This document shows, piece by piece, positions 1 through 6,599 of a stretch of DNA of 64,000 nucleotides. Numbering within the stretch: position 1 is the first letter of the stretch; the number at the start of each line of letters is the position of its first letter. Below the pieces are notes generated by a model, which was not told where the DNA came from, did no database searches, and saw only the letters and a program-made list of their open reading frames with translations. A program made the translations under genes and the position numbers. Source of the stretch: Bdellovibrionales bacterium (GTDB lineage Bacteria > Bdellovibrionota > Bdellovibrionia > Bdellovibrionales > UBA1609); assembly GCA_027317865.1 (NCBI GenBank), contig DAHVQG010000001.1:224001-288000 (forward strand), written 5' to 3'.

Positions 1-1
1 A

Positions 2-394
2 CTAAGTTTAGCGCAAGAACAACGCGCGGCGATCGATCTCGACGTCCGGGGCTTTGGAGCATTCCCTGAACCGACGCATGCCCGTGTTTTTTGGGCTGGT
101 GTGAGTCGAACACGTGAACTGGTCGAACTTTACGACCGGGGAGTGGCAAAATTTAGTTCGTCAGTGAATGACATGACACCGGCAAACCGCGATGAAGATT
201 CAGGTTTATTTGCGCCTCATCTCACGTTGGCGCGGTTTCGAAATTTGCAGTCGGCCTCGCCCTTGATTGAACCGTTCGCGCGTAAGCGGTTATTCTCATT
301 TCGAATAGATGAAATCATACTCTTTGAATCCGTGCTTGAAGGACATTATCCAAAGTACACGCCACTTACCAGGTTTGCTTTTGCACCAAAGTGA
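2..394 (+). CDS. thpR: RNA 2',3'-cyclic phosphodiesterase (2H family), 5'-truncated by the window edge
   Basis: Frame is open from base 2: GFGAFP..ARVFWAGV followed by the second 2H motif PHLTLAR and the LFESVL...Y tail. Confidence 0.85.
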   Translation, partial: LSLAQEQRAAIDLDVRGFGAFPEPTHARVFWAGVSRTRELVELYDRGVAKFSSSVNDMTPANRDEDSGLFAPHLTLARFRNLQSASPLIEPFARKRLFSFRIDEIILFESVLEGHYPKYTPLTRFAFAPK

Positions 395-465
395 CAATTT
401 GAGGCGTAGTAGTGAAAATTCTTACCGTCGCGCTGGGACGTCTTGTGTGGTAAGTTAGCGCCACG

Positions 466-1206
466 ATGAGAAGAATCGTAACCTCCTTATTTTTGTGGTT
501 GGGCGCCGTTTTCTTGCTGAATTCTTTAACTTCAACTGCATTTGCTCGCGGCCAATACGCGGGCCGAAGGGGCATAACGTCGTCCAATAGAATTTGGCTG
601 GATGGCGGGTTAGACTTCGGAGTTTGGATGAAAAACCCGGGCGTGGTTCATACGCTCGAAAATATCCCGGGTCTTGTGCATCACCATCGAGTGCGACTCA
701 TCGAGGGGTGGAAAATGGGTATGGAGCTGGCGAAGCTACACCCCAATCTTGAGGCGATGTATGCTAAAAGATTTGGTACTGTCGAAAAAAAACTCGAGGA
801 CGATACAGCAACGGCCTACGATCATTTATTACCGAAAAATGAAGTTGCCAAAGGGCTTGAGAAAAATCATGTGCAGGTGAATGAAAATTATGTCGGCTAT
901 TTGCCTCGCACCACTTACCTTTTAAAGGACCCGTACATTTATGACGGCGTTTTGACGTTCACGGTTTCGAGCGTTTGCGTGAAAGGTTCGCAATTTGTGC
1001 CGACTAACCCTTATCTCGCGCCAAACGTTCTCGGCATCCCACCATGCCAGGGCGGCAAAGTTTACTCAGTATATAAAATTGCGCACGTTCATTACGACCC
1101 GTATTGCGTTGATGCTTACGGTTATCGAACTTATTGTACATCACCGGATGAACTAAAAAAGCCAATCTGGATCGATACTATTTATACAGGCGCCGAATCC
1201 GACTGA
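466..1206 (+). CDS. Secreted hypothetical protein
   Basis: 246 aa ORF; signal peptide ending AFA; four C-terminal Cys; no recognised family. Confidence 0.6.
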   Translation: MRRIVTSLFLWLGAVFLLNSLTSTAFARGQYAGRRGITSSNRIWLDGGLDFGVWMKNPGVVHTLENIPGLVHHHRVRLIEGWKMGMELAKLHPNLEAMYAKRFGTVEKKLEDDTATAYDHLLPKNEVAKGLEKNHVQVNENYVGYLPRTTYLLKDPYIYDGVLTFTVSSVCVKGSQFVPTNPYLAPNVLGIPPCQGGKVYSVYKIAHVHYDPYCVDAYGYRTYCTSPDELKKPIWIDTIYTGAESD

Positions 1207-1239
1207 ATTCGACCCACCACAACTGACCGCCAACTTGCG

Positions 1240-1548
1240 CTACTTTACCATCTCTTTAAGTTCGCCGGACTGGTACATCTCCATCATGATATCGCTGCCG
1301 CCTACCAATTCTTTATTTACGTACAGTTGCGGAATGGTCGGCCAGTTACCGAATTCTTTTATCCCCTGACGAATTTCTTCGTCGTCGAGCACGTTAACGC
1401 TTTGAAATTGTGCGCCGAGTTCTTGCAGTATGGCGACCGCTCGAGCTGAAAATCCGCACTGCGGAAAGGCCGGCGTACCTTTCATAAATAATACAATGTG
1501 GTTTGCGGATAAGATCGACTCAATTTTTGATTTTGTGCTGACTTCCAT
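1240..1548 (-). CDS. grxD: Grx4-family monothiol glutaredoxin
   Basis: FMKGTP..PQCGFS, WPTIPQLYV and GGSDI motifs; GGGAGA RBS upstream. Confidence 0.95.
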   Translation of the reverse strand: MEVSTKSKIESILSANHIVLFMKGTPAFPQCGFSARAVAILQELGAQFQSVNVLDDEEIRQGIKEFGNWPTIPQLYVNKELVGGSDIMMEMYQSGELKEMVK

Positions 1549-1604
1549 TTTTAAATTCTCCCATGTAAAGTCTTGAGTTTTCGACTCAAGGTAAATTGTT
1601 AAAA

Positions 1605-1760
1605 AATAACAGATGACTATTAACCTCCCATTCGAGGTCTTCGTCTTTCGACTGAAGCCCCACCATTCCGGTTCAATAACAAGCGGCCCAATCTCCTTAA
1701 GCGGTCATAGTGACCAGATTTTAATTGCGGGCTTACCTGCTAAACTTGACCATCTGTGTG
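1605..1760 (-). ncRNA. Predicted bridge/seek RNA of the IS
   Basis: Closing stem ACAGATG/CATCTGT (1609-1615, 1751-1757) encloses two stem-internal loop-hairpin modules whose loop strands match the target and donor flanks. Confidence 0.75.
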
Positions 1761-1800
1761 AACTTCAATCTTTTTCTGTTCTTCATTCCTTTCAAAAAAA

Positions 1801-2829
1801 CTATGCTGCTTTTAATAGCGAGGGCTTATATACGCTCTCGCTCTTCCAAACAGCATAAACTACAGTCAGAAGTTTACGGCTAAGCGCGATTAACGCTCGC
1901 TTTTTGCCGCGTCTTCGTTCAATTCGATTAAAAAATTCTTGCAGCGGCCGCGCCGACGCTGTCTTCATTCGCACCACAGCATGGGCGCATTGTATGAGTG
2001 CTCGCCGCATCTCTTTGCGGCCGGCCCTGGTTACTGAGCCCATTCGACATTCGTCGCCACTTTGGTAAATCGTTGGCGTCAATGCACCGTAATTTGCAAC
2101 GGCTTTGCTATTTTCAAAACGATCCGCGTCAGCAATGGCACCAAAAAGTATTCGTGACGTCAGCTTGCCAATTCCTGGGATGGTCTCTATCCGCTCAATC
2201 ACCACGTCTTCAATCGTCATGATTTCGTTGGCAATTGATTTTTCGCTCTCAACCAGACATTCAATTGCGTGCATAAAGCCGGCAACAATGGCTTCAGTTG
2301 AAGACGATAATTTCATTTCGCAAAGTTGTACCTGCCAATCGTTGGCTTTAAAAAATGCCAACGGCAATTTTTGACCTTCTTGGCGCAAAAATCCACGAAG
2401 CGAGTTCATAAGCGATACACGCTTTCGAAGTAACGTCTCTCGCGCATTTGTAAGTTCGCGTAAAGTTCTCGTTTTACCTTCAGCCATGTGAACTTTGCGC
2501 GGCAACATATCGGCACGCGCGAGCTCTGCCAGTTTCTTGGCGTCAACTTGATCCGTCTTTTTACCACCGCTTTCGGCAATCCATTTCACTTCGTTAGGGT
2601 GAACGATATGAATGTCTTCACCAAGCTTTTTGAAATAATCGGCAATCCACTTCATTTGATTCCCAGCCTCGAATACAAAAAGCTTCGATTCGATGCCAAA
2701 AATGGCGATTAGGTCGCGAATGCCCTTCTTCGTCGGACTAACTGAACCTTTAAATAAAACTTTTTTCTTGTCGTTAAGCGCGTGAACGACAAAATCCTTG
2801 CCTGAGATATCCATTCCTACGTAAATCAT
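1801..2829 (-). CDS. IS110-family DEDD recombinase/transposase
   Basis: YVGMDIS, VFEAG, KKTDQVDA (DEDD intact), IPGIG, GALTP..YQSG (catalytic Ser); ATG at 2829 with AGGGG RBS; frame stays open upstream to GTG 2967. Confidence 0.95.
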   Translation of the reverse strand: MIYVGMDISGKDFVVHALNDKKKVLFKGSVSPTKKGIRDLIAIFGIESKLFVFEAGNQMKWIADYFKKLGEDIHIVHPNEVKWIAESGGKKTDQVDAKKLAELARADMLPRKVHMAEGKTRTLRELTNARETLLRKRVSLMNSLRGFLRQEGQKLPLAFFKANDWQVQLCEMKLSSSTEAIVAGFMHAIECLVESEKSIANEIMTIEDVVIERIETIPGIGKLTSRILFGAIADADRFENSKAVANYGALTPTIYQSGDECRMGSVTRAGRKEMRRALIQCAHAVVRMKTASARPLQEFFNRIERRRGKKRALIALSRKLLTVVYAVWKSESVYKPSLLKAA

Positions 2830-3032
2830 TTTTGACCCCTTTGGTTTGTTGTTGGTAAACAACCAAGAGTCGAAAACGCGACTTAACGTCAACTTTAGAC
2901 TCACGGGGTCTTTTCTTTTTTCAGAGCTGGCCGATCGAAAATCGGCAGCAAAAAGACTTTGCGTCACTTTGCACCACCTTTCTTCGTCTCATAGCTCATG
3001 GAATCTCCTTTAGAATCGTTAATTCGATTTAT

Positions 3033-3263
3033 TTATTTTTTCAACAGGGTTTTAATTTGTAGCGCATGAACTTCGCCGGATTTGAATTCTGAAGAAAATA
3101 AATCCATTATCATCTTGTGCTGTTCGATTCGCGTTTTGTTTAGAAATGAACGCGATGAAACACGCACGTCAAAATGATCATTCGTCCCGGTTGTGTCGAT
3201 CACGGCCACGTCGCAATCGGCCAATGCGGTTTTGATTCGTTTTTCAATTTGTTCAGCCGTCAT
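3033..3263 (-). CDS. bolA: BolA family protein
   Basis: DHFDVRVSS..F..KTRIEQHKMI..EVHALQIKT; start MTAEQI; classic partner of grxD. Confidence 0.9.
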   Translation of the reverse strand: MTAEQIEKRIKTALADCDVAVIDTTGTNDHFDVRVSSRSFLNKTRIEQHKMIMDLFSSEFKSGEVHALQIKTLLKK

Positions 3264-3331
3264 GACTGACCCATATAGCATGCGGGTGAGGTCTATACAG
3301 TTTTGACAAATTGTGTTATGTTGATAAATCC

Positions 3332-3664
3332 ATGCACGAACCGTTAACTGATCCCCAAATTTTGTACTTTTCACCCGCTGACGAAACGCACGTCAGGCGA
3401 GAAAAGGCGCGCGCGCGTGAACTGCGGCAGTCGCAGTGGTGGCGTAACCAAATCGGCCGGGGAGTTTGCCACTACTGTGGAAATAAGTTCGAAAAGGCGC
3501 AATTGACGATGGATCACGTCGTGCCGATTGTTCGCGGCGGCCGTTCGACAAAAGCAAATGTCGTGGTGGCTTGCAAAGAATGTAATTCGCATAAAAAATA
3601 TTGGACTCCAGTGGAACTGGAGCTCATGTCGCGGAACTCCGTCTTGGAGACGGAGAAAAATTAA
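3332..3664 (+). CDS. HNH endonuclease
   Basis: CHYCG, LTMDHVVP..RGG..N.VVACKECN. Confidence 0.9.
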   Translation: MHEPLTDPQILYFSPADETHVRREKARARELRQSQWWRNQIGRGVCHYCGNKFEKAQLTMDHVVPIVRGGRSTKANVVVACKECNSHKKYWTPVELELMSRNSVLETEKN

Positions 3665-3720
3665 TTGCGTTTTCAGCCACCATAGTCGTACCGTAATGAT
3701 CACAGTCTCAAGGAACAGCA

Positions 3721-5430
3721 ATGACAACAAAGCTAACTCAACATAGTACGGCGGAGTATTTCGCAAAAAATCTTCAACAGGTGGGTTTTTCGTCACCGGT
3801 CAAGGCGGTTTTAACGACGCTGAAAGAAGCCGTCGATAATTCGCTTGATGCTTGCGAAGACGCGGCTATCTTGCCCGAGCTTGAAGTAATTATTCGCAAA
3901 ATCGGTCAAGGCTCGGCTCGGAATACCGAGCTTGTTGAAGTCATTGTTGATGATAACGGTCCCGGCATTGATGCGGACGATCTGCCTAGCGTATTCGGCG
4001 AATATTTGTCGTCTTCAAAATTCGGCCGAGGGCGTTGTTCGCGCGGTCAGCAAGGTATTGGGATTTCAGCCGCTACAACCTGGGCCCAGCTCACTAATGC
4101 CGCAGGCGTTCGCGTGATCAGCAAAACAAAAAACATGCGAAAGGCGATAAAAGAGCAAATCGACGTCGATATTAAAGCCAACAAAGGGCTTGTGAAAAAT
4201 AAAGAGACCATTGATTGGGATCGTCCGCATGGGACACGTGTAGAGTTTCGAATCGATGGTCGCGTACAACTTAACGGCGATGGCGGGCTTTTGACTTATC
4301 TCGAAGGCACAACCCTTGTGAACCCGCATATGACGTTAAAATATAAACTTCTTGATAATGATCCTGTTGAAGTGATTCGTGTGAGTAATGCGGTGCCTGA
4401 AGTTCCGCCGCCCACGCTCCCGCATCCGCACACGATGAAACTCGGTGAGTTTATGACTCACGCCCACCTTTACGGTAAAGTGACGCTCGATAATTTTTTA
4501 CGCAAGGGCTTTTCGCGAGTTGCCGATGAAGCGATCAAGGGTTTCGTCAAAAACGGTTTGCCGAAATCATTTTTAAGTAAACCTGTAACGGGTTTGTCAG
4601 AAGCCGATTATAAAACCGCGTTTCAGGCTATTCAGGCAAGCGAGTTGCAGAATCCGTCGACTCGATCGGTAATGATTGTCGGTGAAGAAGCGCTGTCTAA
4701 GAGTATTCAACGTTTGGGCGAAATTGATTTCTTTTCAGTGGTGACCCGCAAACCGCGAATTTGTGACTACAAGCCCGTCGCAGTCGAAGTGGCGATTGCG
4801 CGATTTGTAAAGAAAGTAAATTTGGGGGACGAAACCGATCCTATTCAGCTTTTGCGATTTGCCAATCGTGTGCCTTTGCAGTTCGACAAAGCCGCCTGCG
4901 CCATAACCCAAGCAGTTGAATCGGTGAATTGGCGCGCTTACGGTCTTCAACAGTCAAAGAGTAATTTGCCTTTGGGGCCATACGTTTTTGCGATCAGCGT
5001 TGTCTCACCCTTTATAAAATTCAAAAACGCTTCAAAAGAAACCATCGACGCAAGCGATGAGTTGGTTGAAGAAATTCGCCGCGCGCTCATGCAGGCGGGG
5101 CAAAAATTATCGCGTCACATTAAACGCGAGGTGCGCGCCGCCGACCTGGAACGCAAGCTTCAGCACATTGAAAAATTCGGTCCCATTTTGGTGGAGGCAC
5201 TCGGTAAAATCGTGAACGCACCCAAAGCGAGAATCAAGCGGGCCGAAGAGGGCCTTGCGAAGCTCTTGGGACGCGACGGACGTGAAGCCGAAAAAGAATT
5301 GGCCGAAGCCGAAACCCAATTAGAAAAAGTGAAAGCCAAGCAAGAAGCAGTCGTCAGAGAAGGGGCCAGCGGATCTACTGACGAGACCAAAGAACCACTT
5401 AAAGCGAATCAATCCGAAACGAAAGAGTGA
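3721..5430 (+). CDS. top6B: DNA topoisomerase VI subunit B
   Basis: GHKL motifs KEAVDNSLDA, DDNGPGI, SRGQQGIGISAA; transducer motifs RFANRVPL and FKNASKETI. Confidence 0.95.
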   Translation: MTTKLTQHSTAEYFAKNLQQVGFSSPVKAVLTTLKEAVDNSLDACEDAAILPELEVIIRKIGQGSARNTELVEVIVDDNGPGIDADDLPSVFGEYLSSSKFGRGRCSRGQQGIGISAATTWAQLTNAAGVRVISKTKNMRKAIKEQIDVDIKANKGLVKNKETIDWDRPHGTRVEFRIDGRVQLNGDGGLLTYLEGTTLVNPHMTLKYKLLDNDPVEVIRVSNAVPEVPPPTLPHPHTMKLGEFMTHAHLYGKVTLDNFLRKGFSRVADEAIKGFVKNGLPKSFLSKPVTGLSEADYKTAFQAIQASELQNPSTRSVMIVGEEALSKSIQRLGEIDFFSVVTRKPRICDYKPVAVEVAIARFVKKVNLGDETDPIQLLRFANRVPLQFDKAACAITQAVESVNWRAYGLQQSKSNLPLGPYVFAISVVSPFIKFKNASKETIDASDELVEEIRRALMQAGQKLSRHIKREVRAADLERKLQHIEKFGPILVEALGKIVNAPKARIKRAEEGLAKLLGRDGREAEKELAEAETQLEKVKAKQEAVVREGASGSTDETKEPLKANQSETKE

Positions 5431-6599
5431 TATTTATGGCGGCACCAGAAACTCTGCGAAAATCCAGTAAAGATATTCCGAAGATCGCAAACAAAATTTG
5501 CGACGATATGCTGAAGGATCTTGAGCATGCCAAACGCCCGCTGCTCGAAGCCGTCAAGTGCTCGCTGGATAACAGCTTTTACGATCCCAAAGTTGGCTAT
5601 CTCACGCCAGGTAAAAAGAAAGTTGCGACTGAACTCAACGTTTCGTCCGTACAAAAAATGGCTCGCACCGTATTTTTTCTCGATATTTTACTCAACAATA
5701 TCAGAACCGGGGGCGTGAACACCAAGCGCGAACTTTATTATATGGCAAAGGGCTTAATTAAATCCGACTCGCACCTCAAGCCGCTTGATTTCGACGATCA
5801 ACCCGAAAGTGACGCGATAATCGAATTCATTTGCGATATGCTCATGGTCTATCGCGAAGAGATGAACTGTTTTGCTAACGATCGCGGCGGTCAAACTTAC
5901 TCGAAACAACTTGTCGTGACGGAACACTTGCCAGACGGCACACGGGCTGAAGTTGATTTGGGTTCTTTGGGTACAACGCCCTTTCAGCCTAAAAACAAAC
6001 CGCAAGTGTTTAAGCTTAAAACTAAAGGCAAAATTGATTTTTGTTTGATTATTGAATCTGAAGGTACGGCGAATACGCTTGTATCGAACGGATTTACAAA
6101 ACGATATAAATCAATTTTAGTTGGTGCCCAGGGCGTGCCCAGTAACGGCGTGCGCGGTTGGGTGAGGACGATTCAAGATCAGCTTAAAATCCCGTGCTTT
6201 TTTTACGGCGATCTCGACGCGTATACGCTGCAAAATATTTTTAGAACACTCAAGGCGGGCTCGGCCGCGTCACTAATTCGTAACAGTGAGTTCAGTGCGC
6301 CTGACGTGCGGTTTTTAGGTGTGCTCCCAGAGGATGTCAAAAAATACGACCTTCACTGTTACCCTGTTTCTGAGAAAAATCCGGCTGAAGCACGTTCGCT
6401 TAAAAAAGCGCGCGACGTTTTGCAAAATGATCCGTTTTTTCAAGATAGGCGTAATAAAAAATTGGCCGACATTTTGAACTGGCTCCTTAAAAATAAAGTG
6501 CGTTGCGAGCAACAGGCGATTTTTTCGGTTAACCCGAAAGATCCCACGATGCCCGAGAAAATCATCGTAGAAAAAATTAAACGCGGCTCGTTTGTCTAA
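5427..6599 (+). CDS. top6A: DNA topoisomerase VI subunit A (Spo11-like)
   Basis: KRELYY (catalytic Tyr), IIESE, QGVPS and GDLD Toprim motifs; overlaps top6B stop (alternative ATG 5436). Confidence 0.92.
   Translation: MIFMAAPETLRKSSKDIPKIANKICDDMLKDLEHAKRPLLEAVKCSLDNSFYDPKVGYLTPGKKKVATELNVSSVQKMARTVFFLDILLNNIRTGGVNTKRELYYMAKGLIKSDSHLKPLDFDDQPESDAIIEFICDMLMVYREEMNCFANDRGGQTYSKQLVVTEHLPDGTRAEVDLGSLGTTPFQPKNKPQVFKLKTKGKIDFCLIIESEGTANTLVSNGFTKRYKSILVGAQGVPSNGVRGWVRTIQDQLKIPCFFYGDLDAYTLQNIFRTLKAGSAASLIRNSEFSAPDVRFLGVLPEDVKKYDLHCYPVSEKNPAEARSLKKARDVLQNDPFFQDRRNKKLADILNWLLKNKVRCEQQAIFSVNPKDPTMPEKIIVEKIKRGSFV

Follow-up and report, generated by a model that had tools for sequence, protein, structure and literature searches.

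The locus and its insertion sequence

The window, by which we mean the whole stretch of 64,000 nucleotides that was analysed, carries an IS110-family element inserted between two host genes. The features of the locus, with LE and RE denoting the left and right ends of the element, are as follows.

1240-1548, minus strand: host monothiol glutaredoxin gene, grx (Pfam Glutaredoxin)
1557-3003, minus strand: IS110-family element, 1447 bp (junctions aligned with homologs and with empty-site contigs)
1577-1592, no strand: inverted-repeat arm (pair I2 of the repeat search, 16 nt, 88% complementary; other arm at 2862-2877)
1604-1758, minus strand: predicted bridge/seekRNA, a closing stem enclosing a target and a donor module (covariance model R1, covariation in 20 homologs)
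1801-2829, minus strand: recombinase/transposase coding sequence, 342 aa, canonical start MIYVGMD, with AAAGGGG upstream
2964-2999, minus strand: LE mini-ORF of 11 codons, starting with an ATG 5 nt downstream of the host GGAG and ending in a TGA that overlaps a GTG at 2967-2965
3033-3374, minus strand: host bolA-like gene, upstream of the insertion (Pfam BolA; synteny in relatives)

On the plus strand, two overlapping genes (3721-5430 and 5427-6599) encode the B and A subunits of topoisomerase VI, with Topo-VIb_trans and HATPase_c domains in the former and TP6A_N and TOP6A-Spo11 Toprim domains in the latter; they are preceded by an HNH endonuclease ORF at 3311-3664.

An initial annotation of this DNA had assigned the element to the IS110 family, and the protein comparisons bear this out. 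The product of 1801-2829 contains the Pfam domains DEDD_Tnp_IS110 (PF01548) and Transposase_20 (PF02371) and scores 223 bits (cut-off 140) against NCBIfam NF033542, 'IS110 family RNA-guided transposase'. With phmmer it matches the PDB chains of IS621 and ISCro4 (E 1e-16 and 2e-15; 24-27% sequence identity), the DEDD residues and the serine being aligned, and the top Foldseek matches of its predicted fold are 8wt9, 8wt6 and 9t56 (E 2e-16, TMt 0.69-0.72, with 0.69 for 8wt9). Residues D7, E54, D93, D96 and S257 are invariant in a five-sequence alignment and align with the IS621 catalytic residues, whose roles are described in PMC11208158. At 342 aa the protein lies within the 330-350 aa of IS1111-type recombinases, and its motif ALTPTIYQSG has A for G with respect to GL-P----S/T-G. 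Judged by its sequence and predicted fold, the gene is that of an IS110-family DEDD recombinase with a C-terminal Tnp domain and a catalytic serine.

The five letters TCTCC occur at both 1557-1561 and 3004-3008, so that the element boundary is ambiguous within them; the CT core corresponds to 1558-1559 and 3005-3006. No RNA run is among the sequencing runs listed for the locus; we examined the Logan contigs of four DNA metagenome runs with the locus for joints and flanks. In the runs X1 and X2, one contig each joins 1556 to 3004, skipping the 1447 nt, and at this joint TCTCC (GGAGA on the other strand) fits both sides. Insertion was precise, and only the core region is common to the target and the element ends. 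In X4, a 3435-nt contig contains the element and then continues into unlike sequence, and loose ends of contigs in X1 and X2 give other flanks of the element: one left flank ends AAAGGAG, and another right flank is again AATTTA, followed by ATG. Given that empty-site contigs are present in two runs, the element, 1447 bp long and with exact boundaries, is polymorphic in its community, and it occurs in more than one context.

These contigs bear directly on the view that what this organism carries is a fixed and inactive relic, with an RNA that is intact through recent descent only. In its favour, the element is single-copy in its own assembly, covariance model R1 finds it in the window's own genome only among 151 sampled genomes of the phylum, no junction promoter was seen, a scan of 1400-3200 giving 0 sigma-70-like sites, and no circle junction (RE joined back to LE) was found among the contigs of the four runs. 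A TTGAC box lies in the right end, 17-19 nt from LE, in most relatives; the window's subclade is without it. Against such a view, the same metagenomes contain an empty-site allele alongside further insertion contexts, and all catalytic residues and both element ends are intact. In X1, moreover, the element forms a separate 1454-nt contig with a depth of 39.9, about twice the 16.5-19 of the flanks, which is no more than a weak hint, as the depth of a Logan contig does not measure copy number. We therefore consider it unlikely that the element is such a relic.

Both ends of the window element were aligned with those of seven homologous loci, and the junctions were then listed for all loci. In gene orientation the element starts AT[T/A]C[C/T]ATGA and ends (C)ATGGGAG, the exceptions at the 3' end being L005, with CATAGGAG, and L004, the closest relative of the window element, with CATGGAG. 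The subterminal repeat of the window copy is CCATG/CATGG only (5 bp), and that of relatives of the L006 type is a 10-bp inverted repeat (ATGAAAAAGC/GCTTTTTCAT). Non-coding ends measure 241 nt 3' versus 175 nt 5' of the gene in the window and about 330 nt versus 99 nt in L006. The arms of inverted-repeat pair I2 lie just inside the RE (1577-1592) and 33-48 nt upstream of the recombinase start (2862-2877), and each also folds as a local hairpin.

A scan of genome contigs yielded 10 homologous loci, six of them 51-74% identical over full length, and a scan of metagenomes yielded 61, of which 18 were at 50-64% identity. The lineage had been described as little sampled. This holds for isolates and plasmids, where the best plasmid-borne relatives are ~30% identical and named ones about 25-30%, but not for metagenomes: a protein index contained 584 clusters at E <= 1e-40, of which few come from NCBI and almost all are from contigs 1.2-2.5 kb long. 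Covariance model R1 detected three copies in one metagenome-assembled genome (MAG; L006-L008) and two different elements in another. In the MAG with L004, L089 (G032:C202) is a second, different member of the clade, with its own guide and its own insertion close to a Shine-Dalgarno (SD) sequence. Viral contigs scanned with a pattern from the RNA gave 0 matches. The peptide words VFEAGNQ, HPNEVKW and HPNEIKW are absent from the examined part of the supplement of Durrant 2024, from which absence of the clade there does not follow.

A predicted two-loop RNA behind the recombinase gene

Behind the recombinase gene lie the 155 nt of the predicted RNA. The stems and guides that had been proposed for it were all found in the minus-strand sequence. 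Its predicted parts, in 5' to 3' order along the RNA and all on the minus strand, are the following.

1757-1751 / 1615-1609: closing stem ACAGAUG/CAUCUGU
1732-1729 / 1689-1686: stem GCCC/GGGC of module 1
1716-1724: target guide UUAAAAUCU, 5' strand of the target loop, matching 1551-1559 at 8/9
1703-1715: inner hairpin of the target module, GGUCA-CUA-UGACC, both partners varying at each of its 3 modelled pairs
1691-1698: 3' strand of the target loop, in which AAGGAG (1698-1693) is the sense of left flank and core and is followed by AU
1673-1670 / 1625-1622: stem AACC/GGUU of module 2
1665-1669: donor guide GGAAU on the donor-loop 5' strand, the complement of LE nt 1-5
1634-1660: donor-module hairpin with a GAAA loop, longer in the window and L004 than in other homologs
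1625-1631: donor guide AUGGGAG on the donor-loop 3' strand, with the sense of the RE end and core

The minimum free energy (MFE) of the region is below that of all 200 shuffles (z -4.5). The single-sequence MFE fold contains module 1 only; it does not reproduce the closing stem or module 2, and it sequesters the donor guide AUGGGAG in a different helix. The two-module model is carried by comparative evidence. The 3' regions of homologs consist of conserved blocks with variable stretches between them, and RNAalifold on 20 homologs gave five helices, with compensatory changes at 10 of 21 pairs. Across the 21 modelled pairs in these homologs, 98.6% of pair cells are paired, compared with 85.6% in column shuffles, and 55 cells carry double changes, compared with 15.4 in shuffles, where 0 of 500 reach 55; when the pairing partners are slid by 1-3 columns, at most 50% are paired. 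The helices that covary are the stem below the target loop, the inner hairpin and the donor hairpin, the helix base of the last alternating among GAGC/GCUC, GGGC/GCCC and GGGG/CCCC. Two short loop-adjacent stems are invariant and thus uninformative for or against the fold. The closing stem was misaligned by MAFFT and was scored as a duplex instead; it forms in 20/20 homologs, at -6.3 to -16.3 kcal/mol, with a mean energy of -11.7 for cognate compared with -8.2 for non-cognate pairs. Covariance model R1, in which the window sequence is included, gives the window 100 bits, and Rfam has no family at E <= 1 within 1-6000. The check by covariance model that the initial annotation had called for thus came out in favour of the two-loop fold, and on this comparative evidence the non-coding end encodes what is predicted to be a structured non-coding RNA with two internal loops.

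The same region might instead act as DNA, through subterminal repeats that bind the recombinase, or be a simple 3' UTR or terminator, in which case the loop matches would stem only from GGAG-like sequence common to the ends and the target. The element ends are conserved, so that conservation of the donor loop is uninformative when taken alone, and in the window a U-run directly follows the closing stem. However, compensatory changes occur in three helices, three G-U pairs that are invariant or near-invariant are compatible with the gene-sense strand only, covariation links the variable target guide to flanks outside the element, and the architecture equals that of seekRNAs and bridge RNAs shown experimentally (PMC11187229, PMC11208160). 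We regard a role as DNA or untranslated region alone as very improbable.

Guides, element ends and target site

In the donor loop, GGAAU has its partner in GGAAT at 3000-3004 (LE being 3004-3000 when read on the minus strand). The combinations of LE position 5 and the first RNA base are T/G in 10 cases, T/A in 10 and C/G in 2, and C/A never occurs. The partner of AUGGGAG is CTCCCAT at 1558-1564. In 20/21 homologs the RNA equals the RE end, namely in the 19 with AUGGGAG and in L005, where RNA and end share a G-to-A change (AGGAG); the RE of L004 is one G short. The change in the donor loop of L005, mirrored by its own right end, lends weight to the donor guides as they had been proposed.

Further along the same loop, the variable base in GGAAUG-N-UG (1661-1663, minus strand) correlates with LE position 3 (3002) across homologs, the combinations being A/U in 11, T/A in 6, T/G in 2 and T/U in 3, of which 19/22 are compatible. 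We rejected an alternative register in which these two positions would pair, as no register gave more than two adjacent pairs.

In the target loop, UUAAAAUCU would pair with the gene-sense strand of the core AG and the right flank, where its partner is TTAAATTCT at 1551-1559 (8/9). On the 3' strand, AAGGAGA (1698-1692) matches TCTCCTT at 3004-3010. The two loop strands have AG in common, or CT when read on the opposite strand. The initial annotation had all four guides converge on this core; the two target strands and AUGGGAG do reach it, but GGAAU ends short of it. As read from the sequence, then, the loop strands complement opposite DNA strands in both target and donor and overlap a common core, with the exception of GGAAU.

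The motif GGAGAU within nnnGGAGAU of the target-loop 3' strand is invariant or nearly so in the 20 homologs. The left flank ends GGAG at 23/23 junctions that include 4 nt or more of flank, and LE begins AT in 24/24. Of the stretch AAGGAGA that had been read as a flank guide, GGAG is matched to the flank across the clade, whereas the AU that follows GGAG fits the donor LE. By analogy with the position of the handshake guide in IS621 (PMC11208158), AU at 1692-1691 is a candidate handshake guide for the first two LE bases. A match between the RNA and the three bases 5' of GGAG was also considered and rejected: none is consistent, and only the window, L022, L027 and L025 have one.

In relatives of the host, bolA adjoins grx, and the short spacer between them contains a single AAGGAG ~9-10 nt before the ATG. 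Since this spacer is intact there, the window element splits the stretch between the SD and the start codon of grx, and GGGAG of the RE end is now in the SD position for grx. Across the clade, 17/20 right flanks have a start codon at flank nt 6-10 (a 5-9 nt spacer), counting only start codons whose ORF is 60 aa or longer or runs off the contig; the exceptions are L009, L026 and L031. Every insertion is co-oriented with the host gene, for which the RE GGGAG takes the place of the SD at the original spacing. As judged from these junctions, the clade inserts at GGAG between the SD and the start codon of a host gene, the constant part of its target is the SD sequence, and targeting of ribosome-binding sites is its distinctive trait. 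Our literature search, whose coverage lay outside subscription journals, found no paper on bridge RNAs that target SD sequences.

The right flank of L007 contains an ORF that begins like another transposase (…YYCGIDLH…). As this copy precedes a transposase-like ORF, the insertion sites of the element also include the SDs of other mobile genes.

The proposal that the loops covary with the insertion flanks was borne out for the variable half of the target guide. The anchor base agrees with the first flank base in 20/20 homologs, UCU occurring with A in 3 elements and CCU with G in 17. Over guide positions 2-6, 53/100 bases match the element's own right flank. When flanks were permuted among elements, 30.2 +/- 4.3 matched and 0/20,000 permutations reached 53; when bases were shuffled within each flank, which preserves composition, 37.0 +/- 4.0 matched and 2/20,000 reached 53; shifted guide registers gave 22-39. 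By position, the matches number 14, 10, 8, 12 and 9 of 20, then 5 and 0, and this fall past the fifth variable position suggests a guide of ~8-9 nt including the core.

These figures have to be weighed against a different account, in which the RNA is genuine and the target is chosen mainly by the protein, or by selection for ribosome-binding sites after insertion, so that the variable loop bases would matter little and the RNA would serve chiefly for donor recognition or assembly. Several observations are in keeping with it. About half of the variable positions match, and individual elements match poorly (0 of 5 in L008 and L025, 1 of 5 in L009 and L017). L006-L008, with one guide in one genome, occupy three different spacers. 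In the window's own genome there are 25 matches to GGAGANTTTA versus 21 for the reversed control, and 14 sites in the assembly match the guide perfectly over ten bases (GGAGATTTTA) yet are empty, the occupied site having one mismatch. Furthermore, GGAG is common to target and donor, so that reading of GGAG by the RNA and by the protein are inseparable here. On the other side, the matching is specific to one register and exceeds both the permuted and the composition-matched controls, the anchor base follows the first flank base without exception, L026 has a good guide match and no downstream gene, which points to the guide and not to gene context, and the second site of the window's element repeats AGAATTTA. 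Taking both sides together, we think it quite improbable that the protein or later selection is the main source of target choice, and prefer choice of the target by the RNA guides.

Translation signals, significance and comparison with known systems

Drawing on directly observed sequence matches, covariation within the fold, covariation of guide and flank, SD context and filled/empty polymorphism, we give a probability of roughly 0.87 to the reading of 1557-3003 as an intact IS110-family insertion sequence of IS1111-type layout, with a predicted bridge/seekRNA that carries guides for the element's ends and for an SD target. Under this reading, the 3' non-coding end would be transcribed on the minus strand into a bridge (seek) RNA of ~150 nt. 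In its target loop, UUAAAAUCU would pair with one DNA strand over the core and right flank and AAGGAG with the other over the left flank and core, the two pairings overlapping on the CT core; in its donor loop, GGAAU would read the first LE bases and AUGGGAG the last RE bases and the core. We infer that the RNA is made and is bound by the recombinase, a tetramer of which, with its DEDD residues and catalytic serine, would exchange strands at the core by the chemistry solved for IS621. A constant GGAG half combined with a variable guide that reads the spacer before the start codon would lead to insertion between host SD and ATG in the orientation of the host gene, and the right end (…GGGAG) would supply that gene with a new SD.

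The left end itself has translation signals. Element nt 6-8 form an ATG 5 nt downstream of the flank GGAG; in 23/24 LEs a mini-ORF of 6-11 codons begins there. In the window, the GTG at 2967-2965 opens an extended recombinase frame of 388 aa (extension 2830-2967, minus strand), and L004 has the same arrangement (L004:1286-1500), in which the TGA of an 11-codon leader overlaps the GTG that begins a 402-aa frame. Upstream of MIY, the frame is open for 46 codons from the GTG in the window and 60 in L004, or 53 and 62 from the last stop, and the indels between the two extensions sum to multiples of three. Of the best 120 homolog proteins, 28 continue for 25 aa or more upstream of MIYVGMD, and 16/28 of these start at the LE ATG. 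AlphaFold predicts the N-terminal extension to be disordered; with pLDDT 31-34 and no secondary structure over residues 1-41, we rejected it as a folded domain.

This arrangement suggests that the SD for translating the recombinase may come from the target or from the RE. We tentatively propose, as a possibility that we hold to be doubtful, that the clade parasitises translation signals, with a bridge RNA hard-wired to the SD and a recombinase start that has a 'split ribosome-binding site'. The recombination core would then coincide with the SD. In the window's subclade, the recombinase frame would open at element nt 6 with no SD of its own and would take one from elsewhere, that is, from the host GGAG when integrated and from the right end's GGGAG in the circle. 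Such a split ribosome-binding site would be analogous to a split junction promoter, and the host gene would receive the SD of the right end. In the window and L004, the link would be the conserved 11-codon leader, its TGA overlapping the GTG of the extended frame.

Bridge/seekRNA recombinases are under development as programmable tools for DNA insertion, and the element described here adds to those known, in the IS1111 style. The clade offers a compact system, at low identity to IS621 and ISCro4, with a simple predicted two-loop RNA and readable guides. It would also illustrate a natural logic of targeting, in which the SD, a generic genomic signal, is recognised by a fixed half of the guide and the choice among genes falls to a short variable half, and it shows how an insertion sequence can enter operons and yet restore the ribosome-binding site of the downstream gene.

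An IS110-family element has been linked with translation signals before. IS900 of Mycobacterium avium subsp. paratuberculosis was reportedly found by Doran et al. in 1997 to target translation initiation signals. The RNA proposed here is a candidate explanation, at the RNA level, for that old observation, and one worth testing; the literature examined yielded no RNA basis for IS900 targeting. IS900 differs in being an actinobacterial element of IS110 type, and its hed ORF, which is without its own ribosome-binding site and start codon and depends on the host for them, lies on the strand opposite the transposase (PMC8141618).

The window element resembles the IS1111 family members ISEc11, ISKpn4 and ISPa11, in which a non-coding RNA, a 3' seekRNA, likewise lies downstream of a recombinase of ~340 aa (PMC11187229). 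IS1111-type elements encode the RNA on the 3' side of the gene, and within the RNA the top-strand match precedes the bottom-strand match (Siddiquee 2024, PMC11187229). The initial annotation had claimed this order for the window, and we agree: by its sequence organisation the element has the IS1111-type layout, with the longer non-coding end and the RNA 3' of the gene and the top-strand match first. Also shared with these seekRNAs are the overlap of the two matches in the target and a structured region of ~150 nt with a shorter module that reads the target (PMC11187229). The IS1111 subgroup has subterminal inverted repeats of 7-17 bp (Durrant 2024, PMC11208160), and most members of the window's clade have subterminal inverted repeats; the window copy differs in having the 5-bp repeat only and in having its donor guides in a simple internal loop. 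The targets differ as well: those of the IS1111 family are REP sequences, attC sites or transposon ends (PMC11187229), whereas the clade of the window uses the spacer between SD and start codon.

With IS621 and ISCro4 (PDB 8wt6, 8wt9, 9t56), the element shares the protein fold, the catalytic residues, a two-loop RNA (here predicted) and the CT core. If the CT core is taken to set the orientation of the site, UUAAAAUCU is the counterpart of the LTG of IS621: the 5' loop strand carries a long left target guide (PMC11208160), and the 3' strand has a right target guide of 4-6 nt and then two possible handshake bases (PMC11208160, PMC11208158). In contrast to IS621 and ISCro4, the RNA of the window element would be encoded at the other end of the element, with transcription running toward the left target, and its left donor guide, GGAAU, leaves uncovered the core that the left donor guide of IS621 covers.
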